From Ostreococcus lucimarinus (taxonomy: Eukaryota): a DNA stretch of 64,000 nucleotides. The position numbers and the translations under genes are program-made. The stretch lies in assembly GCA_000092065.1 (NCBI GenBank), contig CP000595.1, one strand, 5' to 3'. This document shows, in pieces, positions 21,625 through 28,800 of this stretch. The notes beneath the pieces are model-generated. The model was not told where the DNA came from and searched no databases. It saw nothing but the letters and a program-made list of their open reading frames with translations. Position 1 is the first letter of the stretch. Each line of letters opens with the position of its first letter.

Positions 21625-21810
21625 GGTTTTGTCTCTTGAATCGGAGTTGTTTTAGAACTGTACAATACACGTCTTCCGTAAACACAATCGCCCTCGAGTC
21701 TTCGCTCTCGAGCGCTTCGTCTCGTCCTCGTGTGACTGTTCACGTTCCTCGGGCGAGGAGAAGTGTCACTCGCCACTTCACCGCGCGCGAGCAGACGCAG
21801 AACGAACACC

Positions 21811-22461
21811 ATGAAGCTTCAAAAAATCGCATTGACGACGTGCGCGACGCTCTTGATGGCCACGAGCGCTATCGGCGCCGAGATGCGTGGTACGACGGCT
21901 TCGAGCGCGCGGCGACTGCTGCAACAAGCAGAGACCAACGACGCCGACGCTGATTCTCAAGCGCGCATCGATCGCATCAATTGGCTCGGTCGCGCTGTGG
22001 TAGAAAATGGCGCGTTCCAGTTTTGGACCAAGAACGCCTCTGGGTACTACACCGCCGTCAACGACTACTATGTCAAATCTTTCGAGCTCGAATCCGACGC
22101 CGACGTCGTCGGCAAGACGGACGTCCAACTGATCGTGCTTGTCGCCGGCGATCGCACGATCGAGGACTTTGAAGACGCCAAACCCGATGAAACACTCGAC
22201 TCCATCGCTTCTGCGTACCGCGAACACGATATGATGGTACAGGAAACCGGAAAAGCGACTCGATTCAACGAGCGCGTGATCGCGGACGACCGCGTGTACG
22301 ACGTCGTCGCCATCAAAGCTCCATTCGAAGGCGGGACGGTCGGGATCGCTATCCCGCGCAACGCCGATGACGACATCAACGTCGTCGTCACGAGCGAATC
22401 CGACGACGACGAATCCGACGACGACGAATCCGACGACGACGAATCCGACGACGACGACTAG
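21811..22461 (+). CDS. Hypothetical secreted protein with signal peptide and C-terminal (ESDDD)4 acidic repeat
   Basis: MKLQKIALTTCATLLMATSAIGA is a classic signal peptide. The tail ESDDDESDDDESDDDESDDDD is encoded by 4 x gaatccgacgacgac (22393-22455). Confidence 0.5.
   Translation: MKLQKIALTTCATLLMATSAIGAEMRGTTASSARRLLQQAETNDADADSQARIDRINWLGRAVVENGAFQFWTKNASGYYTAVNDYYVKSFELESDADVVGKTDVQLIVLVAGDRTIEDFEDAKPDETLDSIASAYREHDMMVQETGKATRFNERVIADDRVYDVVAIKAPFEGGTVGIAIPRNADDDINVVVTSESDDDESDDDESDDDESDDDD
22393..22455. repeat. 15-bp coding microsatellite (gaatccgacgacgac)x4
   Basis: Directly visible. It translates as ESDDD in the gene frame and as PTTTN in the overlapping upstream extension of the next ORF. 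Confidence 0.85.
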
Positions 22462-22645
22462 TCCAGTCGCCGACCGACGCGCCAACCGTCGCGCCGGCTC
22501 GATCGCGCAAGACTCTCGATCGCGCTCGCCGCTCGAACGAATCGAATCGAATCACGACGAAATCAATCCGCGAGATCTCCGCACCGCGCCTCGCGGCGTC
22601 TTCGCTCGTCGTCGCGTCGCCGCGCCGCACACCGCCGCTCGCGTC

Positions 22646-23359
22646 ATGCTCGAAACCCTCGGCGTCGCGCTCGACGCCGACGCGCGCCACCCGGCGCGCG
22701 CGCTCGCCATCGTCGACCACCTGGACGCCCCCGGGACGTGGCTCTTCGCCTCGTTCGTCGCGTACGCGTGCGAACGAAGCCCGGTGGTGGTGCTCTGCGT
22801 GGAGCACCACCCGAGTGAAATCACCGCGCTGGCGCGTAAAATCGCGCGCGGCGCGCGAGATTCGGTGTCAAACGCCCTCTCGCGCGGCTCGTGCGCGTTC
22901 GTGGACGCGTTCACGACGGCGAGGACGACGACGGGGGACGGGTTGACGGGGACGCTGCGGGACGTTCGGGACGCGGCGGCGGCGACGACGCGCGCGGCGG
23001 GATCGGGACGCGTCTGCGTCTGCGTCGATGGGCTCGATGGGCTGGTTATGAGCGAATGCGCGGATGATGCGATGGAGTTGGAGCGGTTCTTGGACGCGGT
23101 CTCGCGCGAGGCGGGGGAGGAGGTTGATTTGGTGACGCTGTCGCACTGGGACGTCGGCGCGGTCGAGGCGTGGTTGGCGGAGAGCGCGGATTGTGAGATT
23201 CGCTTGGAGCCTTTGCGTACGGGGAGCGCGGAAGACGCGCAGGGAATGTGTCAGACGACGCATAGGAATAGCGCGTGGCGTGCGAAAGGGGCGGCGAGAC
23301 GCTCGAGGGCGGGATTCGCGTTGACGGAGCTCGGCGCCAAGTTGGAGCGTCGGCGTTGA
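22646..23359 (+). CDS. Elongator ELP5/ELP6-like protein (RecA-like fold), tentative
   Basis: LAIVDHLDAPGTWLFASFVAYACERSPVVVLCVEHH resembles the conserved N-terminal block of ELP6 (LLCD...GSFLVHHFLSFYLKANCKVCFVAL). DLVTLSHWDVGAVEAWL...EIRLEPLRTGSAEDAQG resembles the ELP6 C-terminal block (LVHDSGDAED...HLILRAEGLATGF). Weak, recall-based call. Start at Met 22646; the ORF track extends upstream over the repeat. Confidence 0.35.
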   Translation: MLETLGVALDADARHPARALAIVDHLDAPGTWLFASFVAYACERSPVVVLCVEHHPSEITALARKIARGARDSVSNALSRGSCAFVDAFTTARTTTGDGLTGTLRDVRDAAAATTRAAGSGRVCVCVDGLDGLVMSECADDAMELERFLDAVSREAGEEVDLVTLSHWDVGAVEAWLAESADCEIRLEPLRTGSAEDAQGMCQTTHRNSAWRAKGAARRSRAGFALTELGAKLERRR

Positions 23360-23410: not shown

Positions 23411-25576
23411 TTACGCTTCTTCTTCTGCAGCCTCGGGTTCGACGTTTTCGTCCGCAGCAGTCTTCGAGGGCGTCGCCTTGAGCACCGAGGGCGGCGCGTC
23501 GACGTCCATGGGATCGTCGTTCATCTCCAACTCTTGGAGCGGCGTCTCTTCTCGGGCATCCAACTCGACGGGTGCGGCGACGGTGGCCGGTTCTTCGACG
23601 ACCTGCGACGTCGTCGTCGTGGTCGTGGTCGCTTCGGCAGCGTCGTGTACTCTAGTGAAATCCGTGTTCAATTCGACGACGTCCTCGAGCTCGCTCACGT
23701 CGAGCGGCGCCTCTTCGACGACTCGCTCTTCTTCAATGGACCTCGCACCCTCCTCTTCCGCCTCGGCGGCGGCCTCCGCCGCGAGCTCGGCCGCTAATTC
23801 ACGCTCTACTTCCGCCACGGCTTCATCCGCTTCGCGCTCGGCCTGACGTTCCACTTCGTCGTCATCCAATTCTTCCGTGGCGACGACGACCTCCGCCTCG
23901 ATGACATCCTTACTAGCTTGCGCCTCGTCCTCCGCGATTTCTTCTGGCGAGCGGTTGGCGGCGATGACGTTGCTCATGATATTCGCCACCGTTGACGCGA
24001 CGAACGCTTCGTTCGCGGCTCGCTCTTCAGCCTCCTTGATAGCCTTTGGCTTGCGTCCGCGTTTCTTTTGCTTCTTTGCGCCGCCGCGAAGAGCGTCTTC
24101 GTCGACGTCTTCTTCGCGCATCAAAGGCACACCGCGACCAGGGGCAGGAGCAATGCTCGTCGACAGCGGATTGATGCCGTACCTCTCCGCCCACGACGCT
24201 GGTGGCGGCGGCGGCATCAAGCCGTAACGCACGCCGCGACGATCCAAAGGCGAGGGGTCGGGAAGACTGCCGCCGAGATCGCGCAGCGCCTCCGCCGGGC
24301 GAAGTCGCGACACGCGGAACGGTTGCGAAGGACCACCCGGGGTCTTACGCGGCCAAATCGGGTTTGCCGTGCGTCGTTCGATCTGCGTGACCGTGGGCAA
24401 GGAGTTGTGGACTCGTTGGTACACCTTGGTCTCTCCGCGCCAATACTCGAGTGGCTTGGATCGTTGACGCGTCGATCGTCGCACGCCACCCTCGGTTGCT
24501 TGTAAACCGGCCAAGGCGAGCGACTTGCGGCGCTCCATCTCGGCGCGAAGGCGCTTGTGCGGCACACCTGCGGTGGTGCGCTTGCGCGGCGCCGGTGGTT
24601 CGGGAAATCCGTCGTCGTCGTACGCCGCGACGTCGTCGTAGCCGAGATCCATATCCTCCTCGCCGTAAAAGTCCGCGAGCGGCGGTTCGTCGCGCTGCGA
24701 ATTGGCGAAGTGTGACACGCCCTGCATCTCTTCCGGCAACCCCTCGGGGTATTCGGCGTGCATCATCATCGCCAACGCCTCGGCCGCGTTCGGCGTACCC
24801 GCGCTCGACAGCCGTCCCGCCTTTGACTTGGACCCGTTCGGCGTCGCCGCCGCGTCGTGCAAAATGTGCGTCGACGGCCTGAACATCGGTCGCGGGCCGT
24901 CCATCGAACCGGTGTTCACCGTAAACGGATTCACATTCGACCCACCGCTGCCGCTACCGCTCCCCGCGCTCGCGTGCGAATCCTCTCCAATCTCCACGAT
25001 GCTCACGCCGTTCGGCGCCGAAAACGCCTCCCCGCCGCTCCCGTTCGACACGTCCATATCGCTCGAACTTTTCTGCTTCATGATCCCCGGAATGTTCACC
25101 CTGATCACGAACGGTCGCGCGCGCACCTCCCGCCCGGTTCCACGTCGCAACCGCAGCCGTTCCCGTCGACTCGCTCGCGGCGCGTACGCGCCCGCCGGCT
25201 TGCCTCCCGCCGCCGCCGCCGCCGCCGCCGCCGCGCGCGCCGCGCGCAACTGCGCCAACCGCGTCGTCGTGCCTACCGCGCCATCGCCCCGCGCGAGCGT
25301 TTTCGTCAGTCCTCGTTCCTCGCGCTCGTCCCGCCCCGTCGCGTCCGTCGCATCGTTCTCCGCACCATCCTTCGCGCGCGTCTCGCCTCGCGCCGTTTTT
25401 AAATCAACGGTCGGCGCCACCTCGCCCCGGTCATCCATCGTCTTGAACGACACCCGTCGCGGCCGCGACGCGCGTCGCGCGCGCGCGTCGTCGACGTCGG
25501 CGTCGAAACGCTTTTCGCGCGTTCCCGCGTCGTCGCCGCGGGCGTTCGCGTCGCGCGGCGCGAGCGGCGTCGACAT
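23411..25576 (-). CDS. CENP-C-motif kinetochore protein (CENP-C-like); acidic low-complexity C-terminal half, poly-Ala tract
   Basis: [25 protein letters not shown] (encoded at 24428..24484) matches the CENP-C motif (human [23 protein letters not shown]). No cupin domain was recognised. Antisense + ORF 24702..25826 is an artefact. Confidence 0.5.
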
Positions 25577-25890: not shown

Positions 25891-28800
25891 TTATTCGCGC
25901 GCGGTCGAGGACGAAGCGCCGCCGAAGCCGAAAAATTTGCCCAGACGGGACGCCGAGGAGGCGGCTTCGGCGCGCTCGCGATCGGCTCGGCTGGGAGCGC
26001 GCGCGAACGCGCGAGGTCGGGCGACGCTTTCGTCGTCGACGACGGTCGTGGTGACCTTGCGGACTCGAGCGATGCGCTCGCGCTCGGGCTTTGGCGGCGG
26101 TGGCGAAGATGGGGTGAAAGCGCGTGGTTTGGCGATGGGCGCGTCGTCGTCGACGCGCCTCTTGGTCACCTTGCGAACGCGAGCGACGCGTTGGCGTTGC
26201 GCCTTCTCAATTTTGGGTTTGGTGAACGCCGGAGCGGACGGGTAGTCCTCATCGTCGATGTCATCGTCGAGTGCTTCGTCGGGGAAGCACTCGGCGCAGT
26301 AGACGTTGCCGTCTGGACCGGGCATGACGTCCTCCGGTTCCATCTCACGCGAGCAGTTCGGACACTCGAAGGGCGCCGGCGCCTTGGACGAAGCTTGTCT
26401 TGGCGCTTCGTCCATCTCAGGTTCTTCCTCGGGTACGCACCGCGGGCAGTAATCCTTCCCGCCTGGACCCGTGATGATATCGTTCAACGTACACGGTGCG
26501 TCGCAATTCGGACACGTGGGGATTGAGCGTTTTCGCTGTGGCGACCAACATTTCGGACAGAATTGCCCACCGTCGACCTTGATGACGTCTTCGGGCTCGC
26601 ACGGCGTCTCGCAGTTCGGGCACACGAACGGCTCCGGCGCGCAACGCGGGCAGTGTTTCTTGCCGTCGACGTCGCTGATCGCGACTTCTTCGGGCTCGCA
26701 CGGCGTCTCGCAGTTCGGGCACACGAACGGCTCCGGCGCGCAACGCGGGCAGTGTTTCTTGCCGTCGACGTCGCTGATCGCGACTTCTTCGGGCTCGCAC
26801 GGCGTCTCGCAGTTCGGGCACACGAACGGCTCCGGCGCGCAACGCGGGCAGTGTTTCTTGCCGTCGACGTCGCTGATCGCGACTTCTTCGGGCTCGCACG
26901 GCGTCTCGCAGTTCGGGCACACGAACGGCTCCGGCGCGCAACGCGGGCAGTGTTTCTTGCCGTCGACGTCGCTGATCGCGACTTCTTCGGGCTCGCACGG
27001 CGTCTCGCAGTTCGGGCACACGAACGGCTCCGGCGCGCAACGCGGGCAGTGTTTCTTGCCGTCGACGTCGCTGATCGCGACTTCTTCGGGCTCGCACGGC
27101 GTCTCGCAGTTCGGGCACACGAACGGCTCCGGCGCGCAACGCGGGCAGTGTTTCTTGCCGTCGACGTCGCTGATCGCGACTTCTTCGGGCTCGCACGGCG
27201 TCTCGCAGTTCGGGCACACGAACGGCTCCGGCGCGCAACGCGGGCAGTGTTTCTTGCCGTCGACGTCGCTGATCGCGACTTCTTCGGGCTCGCACGGCGT
27301 CTCGCAGTTCGGGCACACGAACGGCTCGTCTTCCGGTACATCCTCCCGCAAGCACTCGTTGCAATATTCCAAATCATCCGGACCGATGACGATTTTATTC
27401 GGCGGCTCTACGGTGATTCCGCAATTTGGACAGTTGACATCCTTTTTGCGAGGACAATTTGGCGCTTCATGATCCGTCATACCGCAGATGGAGCAGCGCG
27501 AATCCGGCATGACGAGGTTCTTGCGCGCCAACTCATCGCTCGGCTCTTCGAGCACCGCATGCACACTCGGCGACTCCGCGAGCGGTTTTCTCTCTTGTGC
27601 TTGTTTGAATTGTGCTTGAAGCGCTTCCGATGGCTTTACGGTTGGATTCGCGCGGAAGCAGAAATCGCCAAACGCGAGCATAAACTTCTTCGCGTCCAGC
27701 CGGCTCCCTTGGCAGCACAAGTACCCGTCAGGTTTTTCATCGATGGCGTGCACCCAGCCATGTCGAGCGCCGTGGTACACCCAATCAGGAGTCGACGTTG
27801 AGAAATCGCTGTAGGTTCGGAAGACCAATTCACCAAACTTGTTCAATGGACTCTCGGCACCGACGGCCCACATTGTTGCAGCCTTGAACTCCATCACTCC
27901 CATGCCATCCTTGTCGGTGAAAGCCTTGTACACAGTGCTCACAGCGCGGATGTCCTCGTCAGACGATTTGCCTTGCTTCTTCATAGCCGTCGCAAATCTC
28001 GCTTGTGCTTCGTATGCTTCGACGATATGATGCGCCTTAGGGCGAAGTATGCGTTCAATCAGCCAGCGCGTTGCGCGAGCGACGCCTCTATCTGTCAATG
28101 GCACGCGATGACCGTAGATGATCCAAGCCATGAAGACGAGGGAAGTGAGGAATTCATCCAGGTGCATTCCCCAAGCGTGCTTGATACGCAGCTCCAACCT
28201 CGGACCTTCGCTCGGACATAGCGATCCTTCAACTGAGCCAGTCTCTCGATCGAGTGTGAGACACTTGGCGAGAAGCTCGGGCGCCTTGACGGTATCGAAT
28301 ACCGATCGAACGACGGCTGAGAGCTGATTGTACTGCGAGTTCGGTAGTTTGTCCTCAATCTTGCAACTCGAGATGAGGTACATGAACTGACGGTAAGACA
28401 TGAGCAAGTGATCATCCGCACCGACGCGCGTTTCGTTGTCACTCGGACCAGACGGAATCGACGCGTATGTTTTGAACAAACCCTCCAAAAATGTCCAGTG
28501 ATTGCGAATCTCGCTCCAGACGTAATAGTTGCCATCTTCGGGCTCGAAAGAAGTCAGCACATGGTTCGGTTTGCTGATACCCTTGCGAGTAAGCGGAGCG
28601 GCATCTTGGATGAGCTCCTTACCATTGTTGCGGTAACGCAGAATCGTTCGTTCAAGAGGTTTTGAATTGCTGTCCGCAAGCATTCTGCGCAAGTCGAGCA
28701 CCGTCATTTCCGGATTTTCGTGAACAAGATTAGATTGGAGCACCGGTTGCGCCAACACTGGCCCTTCTTCAATATCCGGTCGAGCGTACATTCGTTCATC

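Follow-up and report, generated by a model that had tools for sequence, protein, structure and literature searches.

The catalogued CENP-C of Ostreococcus lucimarinus carries an extended green-lineage motif block and no cupin domain

The window analysed here, a 64,000-nucleotide stretch of contig CP000595.1 in the Ostreococcus lucimarinus assembly GCA_000092065.1, contains a complete single-exon open reading frame (ORF) on the minus strand whose product is orthologous to the inner-kinetochore protein CENP-C (Table 1). Residues 47–721 of the translation are 100% identical to Ostreococcus_lucimarinus_OLUC004298_CenpC (675 aa; Dataset EV1, van Hooff et al. 2017), and the published CenpC.fa file has no other O. 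lucimarinus entry. The gene was therefore already catalogued as CenpC in that kinetochore survey, the O. tauri genome had earlier been noted to have CENP-C as one of its kinetochore genes, and nothing is new in naming it. Orthologues were found in Ostreococcus, Bathycoccus and Micromonas, with 59–70% identity to the ORF across Ostreococcus clades and 29–36% identity in Bathycoccus and Micromonas. The synteny with a giant upstream gene is conserved.

Table 1. Coordinates of the CENP-C gene and of its sequence and predicted structural features in the window.
Feature	Residues (aa)	Position (nt)	Strand	Basis
Complete single-exon ORF, CENP-C orthologue	721 aa + stop	23411..25576	-	ORF listing
RRVSF, KNL1-type RVxF PP1-docking consensus (candidate)	40-44	25445..25459	-	Upstream of M47
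Ala-rich helix (predicted), 26 residues including Ala9	104-129	25190..25267	-	Conservation; predicted helix 106-122
Conserved N-terminal block, 21 residues	144-164	25085..25147	-	Near-invariant in mamiellophytes
Extended green-lineage CENP-C block	337-435	24272..24568	-	91.5-bit profile match and alignment
Core CENP-C motif, 21 residues	366-386	24419..24481	-	Matches PDB CENP-C/Mif2 motif chains
Basic AT-hook-like patch, 14 residues	501-514	24035..24076	-	Sequence; orthologue cores
C-terminal helical region (predicted)	511-541, 544-564, 572-619	23720..24046	-	AlphaFold2
Acidic disordered C-terminal tail	620-721	23414..23719	-	pLDDT <50; poor conservation

No other block of the protein is as well conserved as the core CENP-C motif, which conforms to the CENP-C signature of about 23 aa, an Arg-rich half followed by P-L-[EQD]-[YWF]-W-R-x-E. 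A first-pass annotation of the sequence had recognised the motif correctly but placed it a few bases off, at nt 24428-24484. In phmmer and profile searches the ORF matched 4x23, 7bxt, 6qld and 7on1, down to E=1e-6. The best of these matches (4x23, 7bxt and 6qld) are CENP-C/Mif2 motif peptides on CENP-A nucleosomes, and CENP-C/Mif2 motif chains were the only significant PDB matches. Compared with the 4x23 CENP-C motif peptide, 17 of 24 residues are the same, the spacing of the arginines is identical and PLEYWRGE is common to both. Across 14 mamiellophyte sequences from three genera, no variation is seen at 12 of the 17 positions that open the motif (aa 366-382), namely R366, S368, R370, R372, P375, L376, E377, Y378, W379, R380, G381 and E382. 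Loss of the motif from orthologues, which the first-pass annotation had named as evidence that would count against its reading, was thus not seen in Ostreococcus, Bathycoccus or Micromonas. On its other named condition, a cupin-bearing CENP-C elsewhere in the genome, the published ortholog set speaks indirectly, with a single CenpC for O. lucimarinus.

The motif lies within a longer conserved block consisting of an 18-residue basic helix (aa 338-355; AlphaFold2 block-mean pLDDT about 76-83), the motif itself, and two conserved segments of 19 and 16 residues. A profile built from nine non-mamiellophyte green-lineage CENP-C C-termini aligned to aa 339-415 (77 residues) with a score of 91.5 bits (E=4e-26), and of the window's 833 six-frame fragments only the ORF was matched. 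The flanks typical of the green lineage are present, namely RKSLAG upstream of the motif and Y.RVH.SLPT and P.WP downstream, and the extended block is common to the ORF and the green-lineage CENP-Cs with which it was compared. In a search with a profile of the core block, all functionally named matches were annotated as 'centromere protein C' or 'CENP-C' and most matches were unnamed or 'hypothetical protein'; all were short proteins or fragments of at most 200 aa, in which the architecture of full-length relatives is not visible. A search with the motif region as a single 99-aa sequence returned one protein and was uninformative.

The protein does not pass directly from the motif into acidic, low-complexity sequence, as had been proposed from the sequence alone. 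The conserved extension runs to about aa 435 and is followed by a Pro/Gly-rich stretch, a basic patch, predicted helices and only then the acidic disordered tail. The core of the basic patch is KKRGRKPK in O. lucimarinus, with RGRK-P shifted relative to the canonical RGRP of AT-hooks; canonical cores are found in a second Ostreococcus clade (KRGRP or RRGRP) and in Bathycoccus (KKKRGRPRK). The predicted helices lie at the position of the animal and fungal cupin domain. Block-mean pLDDT is 77-91 over most of aa 511-610, with a dip to 44-64 at aa 551-570. The first helix (aa 511-541) is conserved and has a pLDDT of 85-91, and those within aa 544-619 are acidic. Within the helical region the residue N536 never varies, and A539 and N541 hardly do.

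Several lines of evidence rule out a cupin domain. A Pfam scan of the ORF gave zero matches at E<=10, to cupin and SANTA domains alike; as a positive control, PF11699 was detected in human CENP-C at 1.2e-30. The AlphaFold2 model (14-sequence alignment) has no beta-barrel and no strand after aa 450, the C-terminus being predicted as helices and disorder only. Residues 521-721 are 22% Glu with a net charge of -50, an acidic composition that also speaks against a cupin. A profile search of PDB gave no cupin support, and full-length Mif2 (7on1_C) was matched at the motif only. A Foldseek search against PDB returned nothing with E<0.8, although with a model mean pLDDT of 49 this fold search is weak when taken alone. 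The experimentally studied Arabidopsis CENP-C likewise has zero Pfam matches, and plant CENP-C C-termini resemble those of animals and fungi at the motif only (Talbert et al. 2004). CENP-C of the plant lineage normally has no cupin (Mif2-homology) region, so the protein need not be regarded as the 'highly derived CENP-C' that had been suggested. The first-pass annotation was right to read the ORF as a candidate centromere protein that has a CENP-C motif but lacks a cupin: the motif is conserved, Pfam is blank and the protein is a published CenpC. The novelty that it implied was overstated; identity to a catalogued CenpC, together with a cupin absence that is usual in plants, makes the finding correct but ordinary.

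The N-terminal half contains a triplet-encoded alanine run, as had been noted, which consists of nine rather than ten alanines (aa 115-123, nt 25208-25234) and is encoded by (GCG)n rather than (GCC)n; TRF reports a CCG repeat of 12.3 copies at 25207-25243. The predicted Ala-rich helix around it is conserved at the protein level across Ostreococcus and recognisable in Bathycoccus. The conserved block that follows (aa 144-164) includes a predicted strand at aa 156-160 and could be a partner-binding strand. By eye this block resembles the G[ST]GR...F.[ILV] blocks of Chlamydomonas, Coccomyxa and Chlorella CenpC. The corresponding HMM had the ORF as its top match in the window, but at E=0.11 the match is not significant and homology to the chlorophyte G[ST]GR..F blocks was not accepted. 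Homology to the land-plant N-terminal block (RRPGL.RKR..FSLKP...EFF) was also rejected, as its HMM gave no match. For a Mis12-binding region, the ORF had no sequence match to CENP-C/Mif2 N-terminal PDB chains, and the land-plant N-terminal profile was blank.

The reference gene model starts at M47 (codon 25436-25438), downstream of an in-frame RRVSF. The presence of this sequence just upstream of the annotated CENP-C start is possibly a new observation. A literature search combining CENP-C, RVxF and PP1 returned only KNL1-related papers. RRVSF matches the pattern [RK]-x(0,1)-[VI]-{P}-[FW] and is a conserved site in a disordered context (pLDDT <50). All mamiellophyte orthologues whose N-terminus is complete have it, in all three genera sampled (Ostreococcus, Bathycoccus and Micromonas); in O. 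tauri it lies in-frame upstream of the annotated start, and in a third Ostreococcus clade it is encoded in a separate exon 1. In the CenpC file of the 90-species set it is found in Bathycoccus and Micromonas only, and six related RRVSF variants are absent from that file, while the KNL1 ortholog file contains 38 occurrences of RRVSF. Only 0.18% of shuffles of the ORF protein contain [RK][RK]V[ST]F. The Bathycoccus CENP-C has, in addition, a SILK-like IKSALKS about 29 residues upstream of its RRVSF.

Taken together, the ORF is very probably the single-copy inner-kinetochore CENP-C of O. lucimarinus built on the green-lineage plan, with copy number taken from the published ortholog set. That plan is a long disordered protein in which the extended CENP-C block alone is strongly conserved and which has no cupin. 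Two other readings of the sequence were weighed against it. Because the window has a GC content of 59% and many long spurious ORFs on both strands, and because much of the protein is of low complexity, the motif could in principle be a chance match in a non-coding or GC-rich ORF; this is hardly credible for an ORF with a GC3 of 76%, conserved synteny, orthologues with an invariant motif block and a profile match of E=4e-26, and conservation already refutes it. The protein could also be a KNL2/M18BP1-like factor that loads CENH3 and uses a CENPC-type motif, rather than a structural kinetochore protein, an alternative raised by the first-pass annotation. In five algal genomes examined for it, KNL2 was retrieved from none (Zuo 2022), which leaves the loading role formally unassigned there and equally counts against the KNL2 reading. 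We consider a KNL2-like identity very unlikely and reject it on further grounds as well. SANTA (PF09133) is absent from the ORF at E<=10, and the same Pfam scan found it in Amborella KNL2 (ATRI023348) at 1.3e-23. The spacing of the CENPC-k consensus KRSRSGRV/LLVSPLEFW (Zuo 2022) differs from that of the ORF motif, with four residues between the last Arg and the Pro of PLE[FY]W compared to two in the ORF, where the Trp is followed by RGE. The RKSLAG, VH.SLPT and P.WP flanks are common to the ORF and green CENP-C but not KNL2. Finally, a plant KNL2 scores 24.8 bits against the green CENP-C profile and the ORF 91.5 bits, which indicates a typical green-lineage CENP-C.

A further reading extends the identification as CENP-C rather than excluding it. 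The protein may carry lineage-specific additions, in which RRVSF docks PP1 at the inner kinetochore, in the way that KNL1 does at the outer kinetochore, and the helices of the C-terminus serve in the cupin's place as an oligomerisation or partner-binding module. The position of RRVSF in a disordered N-terminus, its presence in all complete mamiellophyte N-termini, its rarity among shuffles, its being typical of KNL1 and the Bathycoccus SILK-like element are in keeping with such a role, as are the confident prediction of helices aa 511-541 and 572-619 and the conservation of the first. However, O. lucimarinus KNL1 keeps its own GRRVSF, which leaves no obvious need for another PP1 dock; RRxS is also a generic target of basophilic kinases of the Aurora or PKA type, and phosphoregulation alone could explain its conservation; and no paper tying CENP-C to an RVxF motif was retrieved. 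We therefore put this reading forward tentatively, as possible but short of probable. Should it hold, mamiellophyte CENP-C might be an unusual variant with an Aurora-regulatable PP1 site at its true N-terminus and a helical C-terminal module in place of the cupin, and the O. lucimarinus and O. tauri annotations would, with the same reservation, hide the docking site because the start was set at the next Met. The smallest known eukaryotes, whose kinetochores have not been described by EM, would in that case bring PP1 straight to the inner kinetochore, and if RRVSF binds PP1 this would represent a lineage-specific rewiring of kinetochore phosphatase recruitment.

As a green-lineage CENP-C, the protein would engage centromeric nucleosomes in the manner known from other organisms, from which we infer nucleosome binding, DNA binding and Mis12 recruitment. 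The Arg-rich half of the motif (RRSTRQR) would anchor on the H2A/H2B acidic patch and the PLEYW half would pack on the hydrophobic C-terminal tail of the centromeric histone. The basic flanks, comprising a 12-residue stretch upstream and the WPRK stretch and AT-hook-like patch downstream, may make sequence-independent DNA contacts. In Arabidopsis, the CENPC motif and flanking basic DNA-binding regions target CENP-C to centromeres (Yalagapati 2025), and yeast Mif2 combines the motif, RK clusters and an AT hook in a single domain that binds DNA and histones (Xiao 2017). Recruitment of the outer kinetochore would fall to the N-terminal half, by way of the Mis12 complex. The published O. lucimarinus set contains CenpA (tail ...RGPIYGVAAY), Mis12, Nnf1, Dsn1, Nsl1, Ndc80, Nuf2, Spc24, Spc25 and Knl1, and the CenpS file is the sole CCAN file with an entry for this species. 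With CCAN entries limited to CenpS, CENP-C may be O. lucimarinus's sole recognisable connection between CENH3 chromatin and KMN, and it is an obvious tagging or ChIP handle for mapping the still-uncharacterised Ostreococcus centromeres.

The protein shares the CENP-C motif with animal and fungal CENP-C/Mif2/Cnp3 but, unlike animal and fungal CENP-C, it has neither a C-terminal cupin domain for dimerisation (PF11699) nor a second 'central' motif, and regions that would bind the CCAN are not recognisable in it. In plant alpha-KNL2 a related nucleosome-targeting motif is similarly flanked by basic DNA-binding regions, but that protein is defined by an N-terminal SANTA domain that the ORF lacks, and its motif subtype and flanks differ. 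Like the SILK/RVSF module at the KNL1 N-terminus, the ORF has an identical RRVSF in a disordered N-terminus, to which Bathycoccus adds a SALK; unlike in KNL1, the RRVSF is on an inner-kinetochore protein, O. lucimarinus has no clear SILK-like element, and there is no other similarity to KNL1. Among the CENP-Cs of the 90-species set, the N-terminal RRVSF is confined to Mamiellophyceae. The ORF has no detectable counterpart of the land-plant N-terminal conserved block. In common with land-plant and chlorophyte CENP-C (Arabidopsis At1g15660, maize CENPC and the CenpC of Chlamydomonas, Coccomyxa and Chlorella), it combines the lack of a cupin with the extended block ([RK]RKSLAG..G..G.RRSTR.R.[KR] through P.WP) in an otherwise disordered, fast-evolving protein. 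Land-plant and Chlamydomonas CENP-Cs have the block close to or at their C-terminus, whereas the ORF continues for about 290 more residues, which include the AT-hook-like patch, located downstream of the motif like the AT hook of yeast Mif2, the conserved helices and the acidic tail.

The uninterrupted ORF has a GC3 content of 76%; the GC content of the window as a whole is 59%. Its residues 47-721 are identical to the 675-residue Ostreococcus_lucimarinus_OLUC004298_CenpC, the only O. lucimarinus entry in CenpC.fa (Dataset EV1, van Hooff et al. 2017, PMC5579357), where it stands alongside Bathycoccus and Micromonas entries; the gene had therefore already been catalogued as a CENP-C orthologue. 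CENP-C is also among the recognisable kinetochore genes of the O. tauri genome in a 2012 review (PMC3603444). A homologue search recovered orthologues from several Ostreococcus clades including O. tauri (59-70% identity), sequences corresponding to the CenpC entries published for Bathycoccus and Micromonas (29-36% identity), and a maple protein whose similarity is confined to the motif. Most matches to a core-block profile were unnamed, and all functionally named ones were "centromere protein C" or "CENP-C". The ORF product is a centromere protein, CENP-C. The first-pass observation holds, with minor corrections, and its reading as a candidate centromere protein was right in substance. Because the identity of the gene is already known, the finding is of low interest, and follow-up is worthwhile only for the corrected N-terminus, in which RRVSF is conserved, and for the helical C-terminal module.

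Features of the CENP-C locus and its neighbours
Feature	Residues	Nucleotides	Strand	Remarks
CENP-C ORF	1-721	23411..25576	minus	uninterrupted, ATG start
N-terminal extension	1-46	25439-25576	minus	longer ORF, conserved N-terminus
RRVSF	40-44	25445-25459	minus	within extension
Core CENP-C motif	366-386	24419-24481	minus	
Basic AT-hook-like patch	501-514	24035-24076	minus	degenerate AT-hook
Conserved helix	511-541			pLDDT 85-91
Acidic helices	up to 619			AlphaFold2
Acidic tail	after 619			last; poorly conserved
Upstream neighbour ORF	3246 aa	25891-35631	minus	Big_9, cadherin-like, ephrin-receptor-like domains
Tandem repeat in neighbour ORF		26584-27327		7.5 copies of 99 bp, 99% matches
15-bp tandem repeat		22390-22457		4.5 copies, 98% matches

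The motif peptide quoted in the first-pass annotation is present in the ORF, slightly displaced from the position assigned to it (24428-24484). A phmmer search of all PDB chains with the whole protein returned, as its sole meaningful matches, nucleosome-bound CENP-C motif peptides (4x23, 7bxt/7by0) and a yeast Mif2 peptide (6qld). A profile from the orthologue alignment sharpened the motif-peptide matches to E=1e-6 and added full-length Mif2 (7on1), aligned at its motif only. The ORF and the 4x23 peptide agree at 17 of 24 residues, with the same arginine spacing and an identical KPLEYWRGE. An HMM was built from nine green-lineage CenpC C-terminal regions, leaving out Mamiellophyceae (Arabidopsis, Aquilegia, rice, Amborella, Selaginella, Physcomitrella, Chlamydomonas, Coccomyxa, and Chlorella). 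This profile matched aa 339-415 of the ORF, 77 residues, at 91.5 bits (E=4e-26); of the 833 six-frame fragments from the window, no other matched. The motif is more than a chance match.

The protein had initially been read as either a highly derived CENP-C or a KNL2-like protein using a CENPC-type motif. KNL2 is defined by a SANTA domain, carries a CENPC-k motif with the consensus KRSRSGRV/LLVSPLEFW, and was retrieved from none of five algal genomes (Zuo 2022, PMC9210943). Unlike plant KNL2, which has both elements, the ORF has no SANTA domain (Pfam, E<=10) and its motif is of the CENP-C type in spacing and flanks. The green-lineage profile scored a plant KNL2 at 24.8 bits and human CENP-C at 25.1 bits, against 91.5 bits for the ORF. 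We rejected the KNL2 reading. Separately, the CenpC.fa entry Amborella_trichopoda_ATRI023348 combines an N-terminal SANTA domain (1.3e-23) with a motif of the CENPC-k type (SRSGRIIVRPLAYWCNERIVYG); despite its listing as CenpC, this protein is KNL2, not CENP-C.

The absence of a cupin domain, noted at the outset, was borne out. No Pfam family matched the ORF at E<=10, while the same library returned PF11699 for the human CENP-C C-terminus (1.2e-30) and SANTA for Amborella KNL2 (1.3e-23). AlphaFold2 (14-sequence alignment) predicted a chain that is disordered for the most part (mean pLDDT 49). Its confidently predicted helices span aa 338-355, 511-541, and 572-619, strands are absent beyond aa 450, and Foldseek found no PDB match to the model with E<0.8. 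The experimentally studied Arabidopsis CENP-C likewise has zero families in this library. The emphasis of the first-pass annotation was off: for its lineage the protein is not highly derived, and it is not KNL2-like. In plants, the conserved CENP-C block is the last ~80 residues including the motif (Talbert et al.); it shares with the window protein RKSLAG upstream and Y.RVH.SLPT[VI] and P.WP downstream. Cupin absence is not peculiar to picoalgae: in the plant lineage it is the usual state, and Talbert et al. (2004) found the C-termini of plant CENP-C to be similar to those of animals and fungi at the motif alone. C-terminal fragments of plant CENP-C bear a precomputed annotation, PF28563.1, which is carried by no mamiellophyte sequence and was not returned when one marked protein (P0026) was scanned against our local Pfam copy. 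The plant block seems to have a Pfam family of its own, one that does not reach the picoalgal proteins.

The first in-frame ATG, at 25576, lies 46 codons before the reference-model start (M47); the stop of the neighbouring gene (25891) is ~315 nt further upstream. RRVSF is the pentapeptide that docks PP1 on KNL1. It occurs, with an M[AS]T[PA]L..PRD.NA N-terminus, in all mamiellophyte orthologues with a complete N-terminus. Bathycoccus and Micromonas also carry RRVSF. In O. tauri, RRRVSFKT is in frame directly upstream of the annotated start, and in a third Ostreococcus clade RRVSF lies in its own first exon, followed by an intron. The start Met of both reference models, OLUC004298 and P0006 (O. 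tauri), falls right after the conserved RRVSFKT. The pattern [RK][RK]V[ST]F arose in just 0.18% of protein shuffles. In the published set of 90 species, Knl1.fa has 38 occurrences of RRVSF, and CenpC.fa has it only in Bathycoccus and Micromonas, both Mamiellophyceae; six related variants were absent from CenpC.fa. KNL1 of O. lucimarinus still carries a GRRVSF. Our literature search found no paper connecting CENP-C to an RVxF motif, and the N-terminal RRVSF may be a new observation. It could serve as a PP1 dock or be no more than a basophilic-kinase site.

The following segment, aa 45-103 (25268-25444), up to the Ala-rich helix, is open in frame and poorly conserved in O. lucimarinus. Its counterpart (~2050-2180 in L001; ~1900-2000 in L002/L003) contains, in O. 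tauri, an annotated intron interrupted by in-frame stops and, in the third clade, an intron with (TG)n. Either loss of an intron or an in-frame intron that has gone unrecognised could account for this. The triplet-encoded alanine run described earlier exists as Ala9 (aa 115-123) rather than Ala10; its codons form a GCG/CCG repeat, also called by TRF at 25207-25243.

The giant neighbouring gene likewise precedes CENP-C in O. tauri and in one further Ostreococcus clade, so that the gene order is conserved. The 99-bp repeat, near the giant protein's C-terminus, encodes 33-aa CxxC...CxxC units. The 15-bp repeat lies where two long plus-strand ORFs without Pfam matches overlap (21763-22461 and 22367-23359), and its translation is a DDDES repeat in one ORF and an NPTTT repeat in the other.

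By analogy with homologues, the motif would clamp the CENH3 nucleosome, its arginines engaging the acidic patch and PLEYW packing against the hydrophobic CENH3 tail (O. lucimarinus CenpA ends in ...RGPIYGVAAY). The basic flanks and AT-hook-like patch would contact DNA, and the disordered N-terminal half would recruit the Mis12 complex. The orthologue-alignment profile gave no PDB match for a Mis12-binding element, a land-plant N-terminal CENP-C profile did not match the ORF, and the similarity of a 17-residue N-terminal segment to blocks in other chlorophyte CenpCs was non-significant (E=0.11). The published set contains O. lucimarinus Mis12, Nnf1, Dsn1, Nsl1, Ndc80, Nuf2, Spc24, Spc25, and Knl1. 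Among its CCAN files the species appears in CenpS only, so CENP-C may be the sole known bridge.

The description of the sequence after the motif as only acidic and low-complexity was too simple. The conserved block extends to ~aa 435 and gives way to a Pro/Gly-rich stretch with conserved islands; the basic patch and helices then precede the acidic tail. In a second Ostreococcus clade and in Bathycoccus the patch has the canonical AT-hook form (KRGRP, RRGRP or KKKRGRPRK; RGRP core). Yeast Mif2 combines its motif, basic clusters, and an AT-hook downstream of the motif within a DNA- and histone-binding domain (Xiao 2017, PMC5710141), and is paralleled by the motif, basic clusters, and downstream AT-hook-like element of the ORF. 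The basic regions around the motif also parallel Arabidopsis CENP-C, in which basic DNA-binding regions beside the motif are required for centromere targeting (Yalagapati 2025, PMC11879092).
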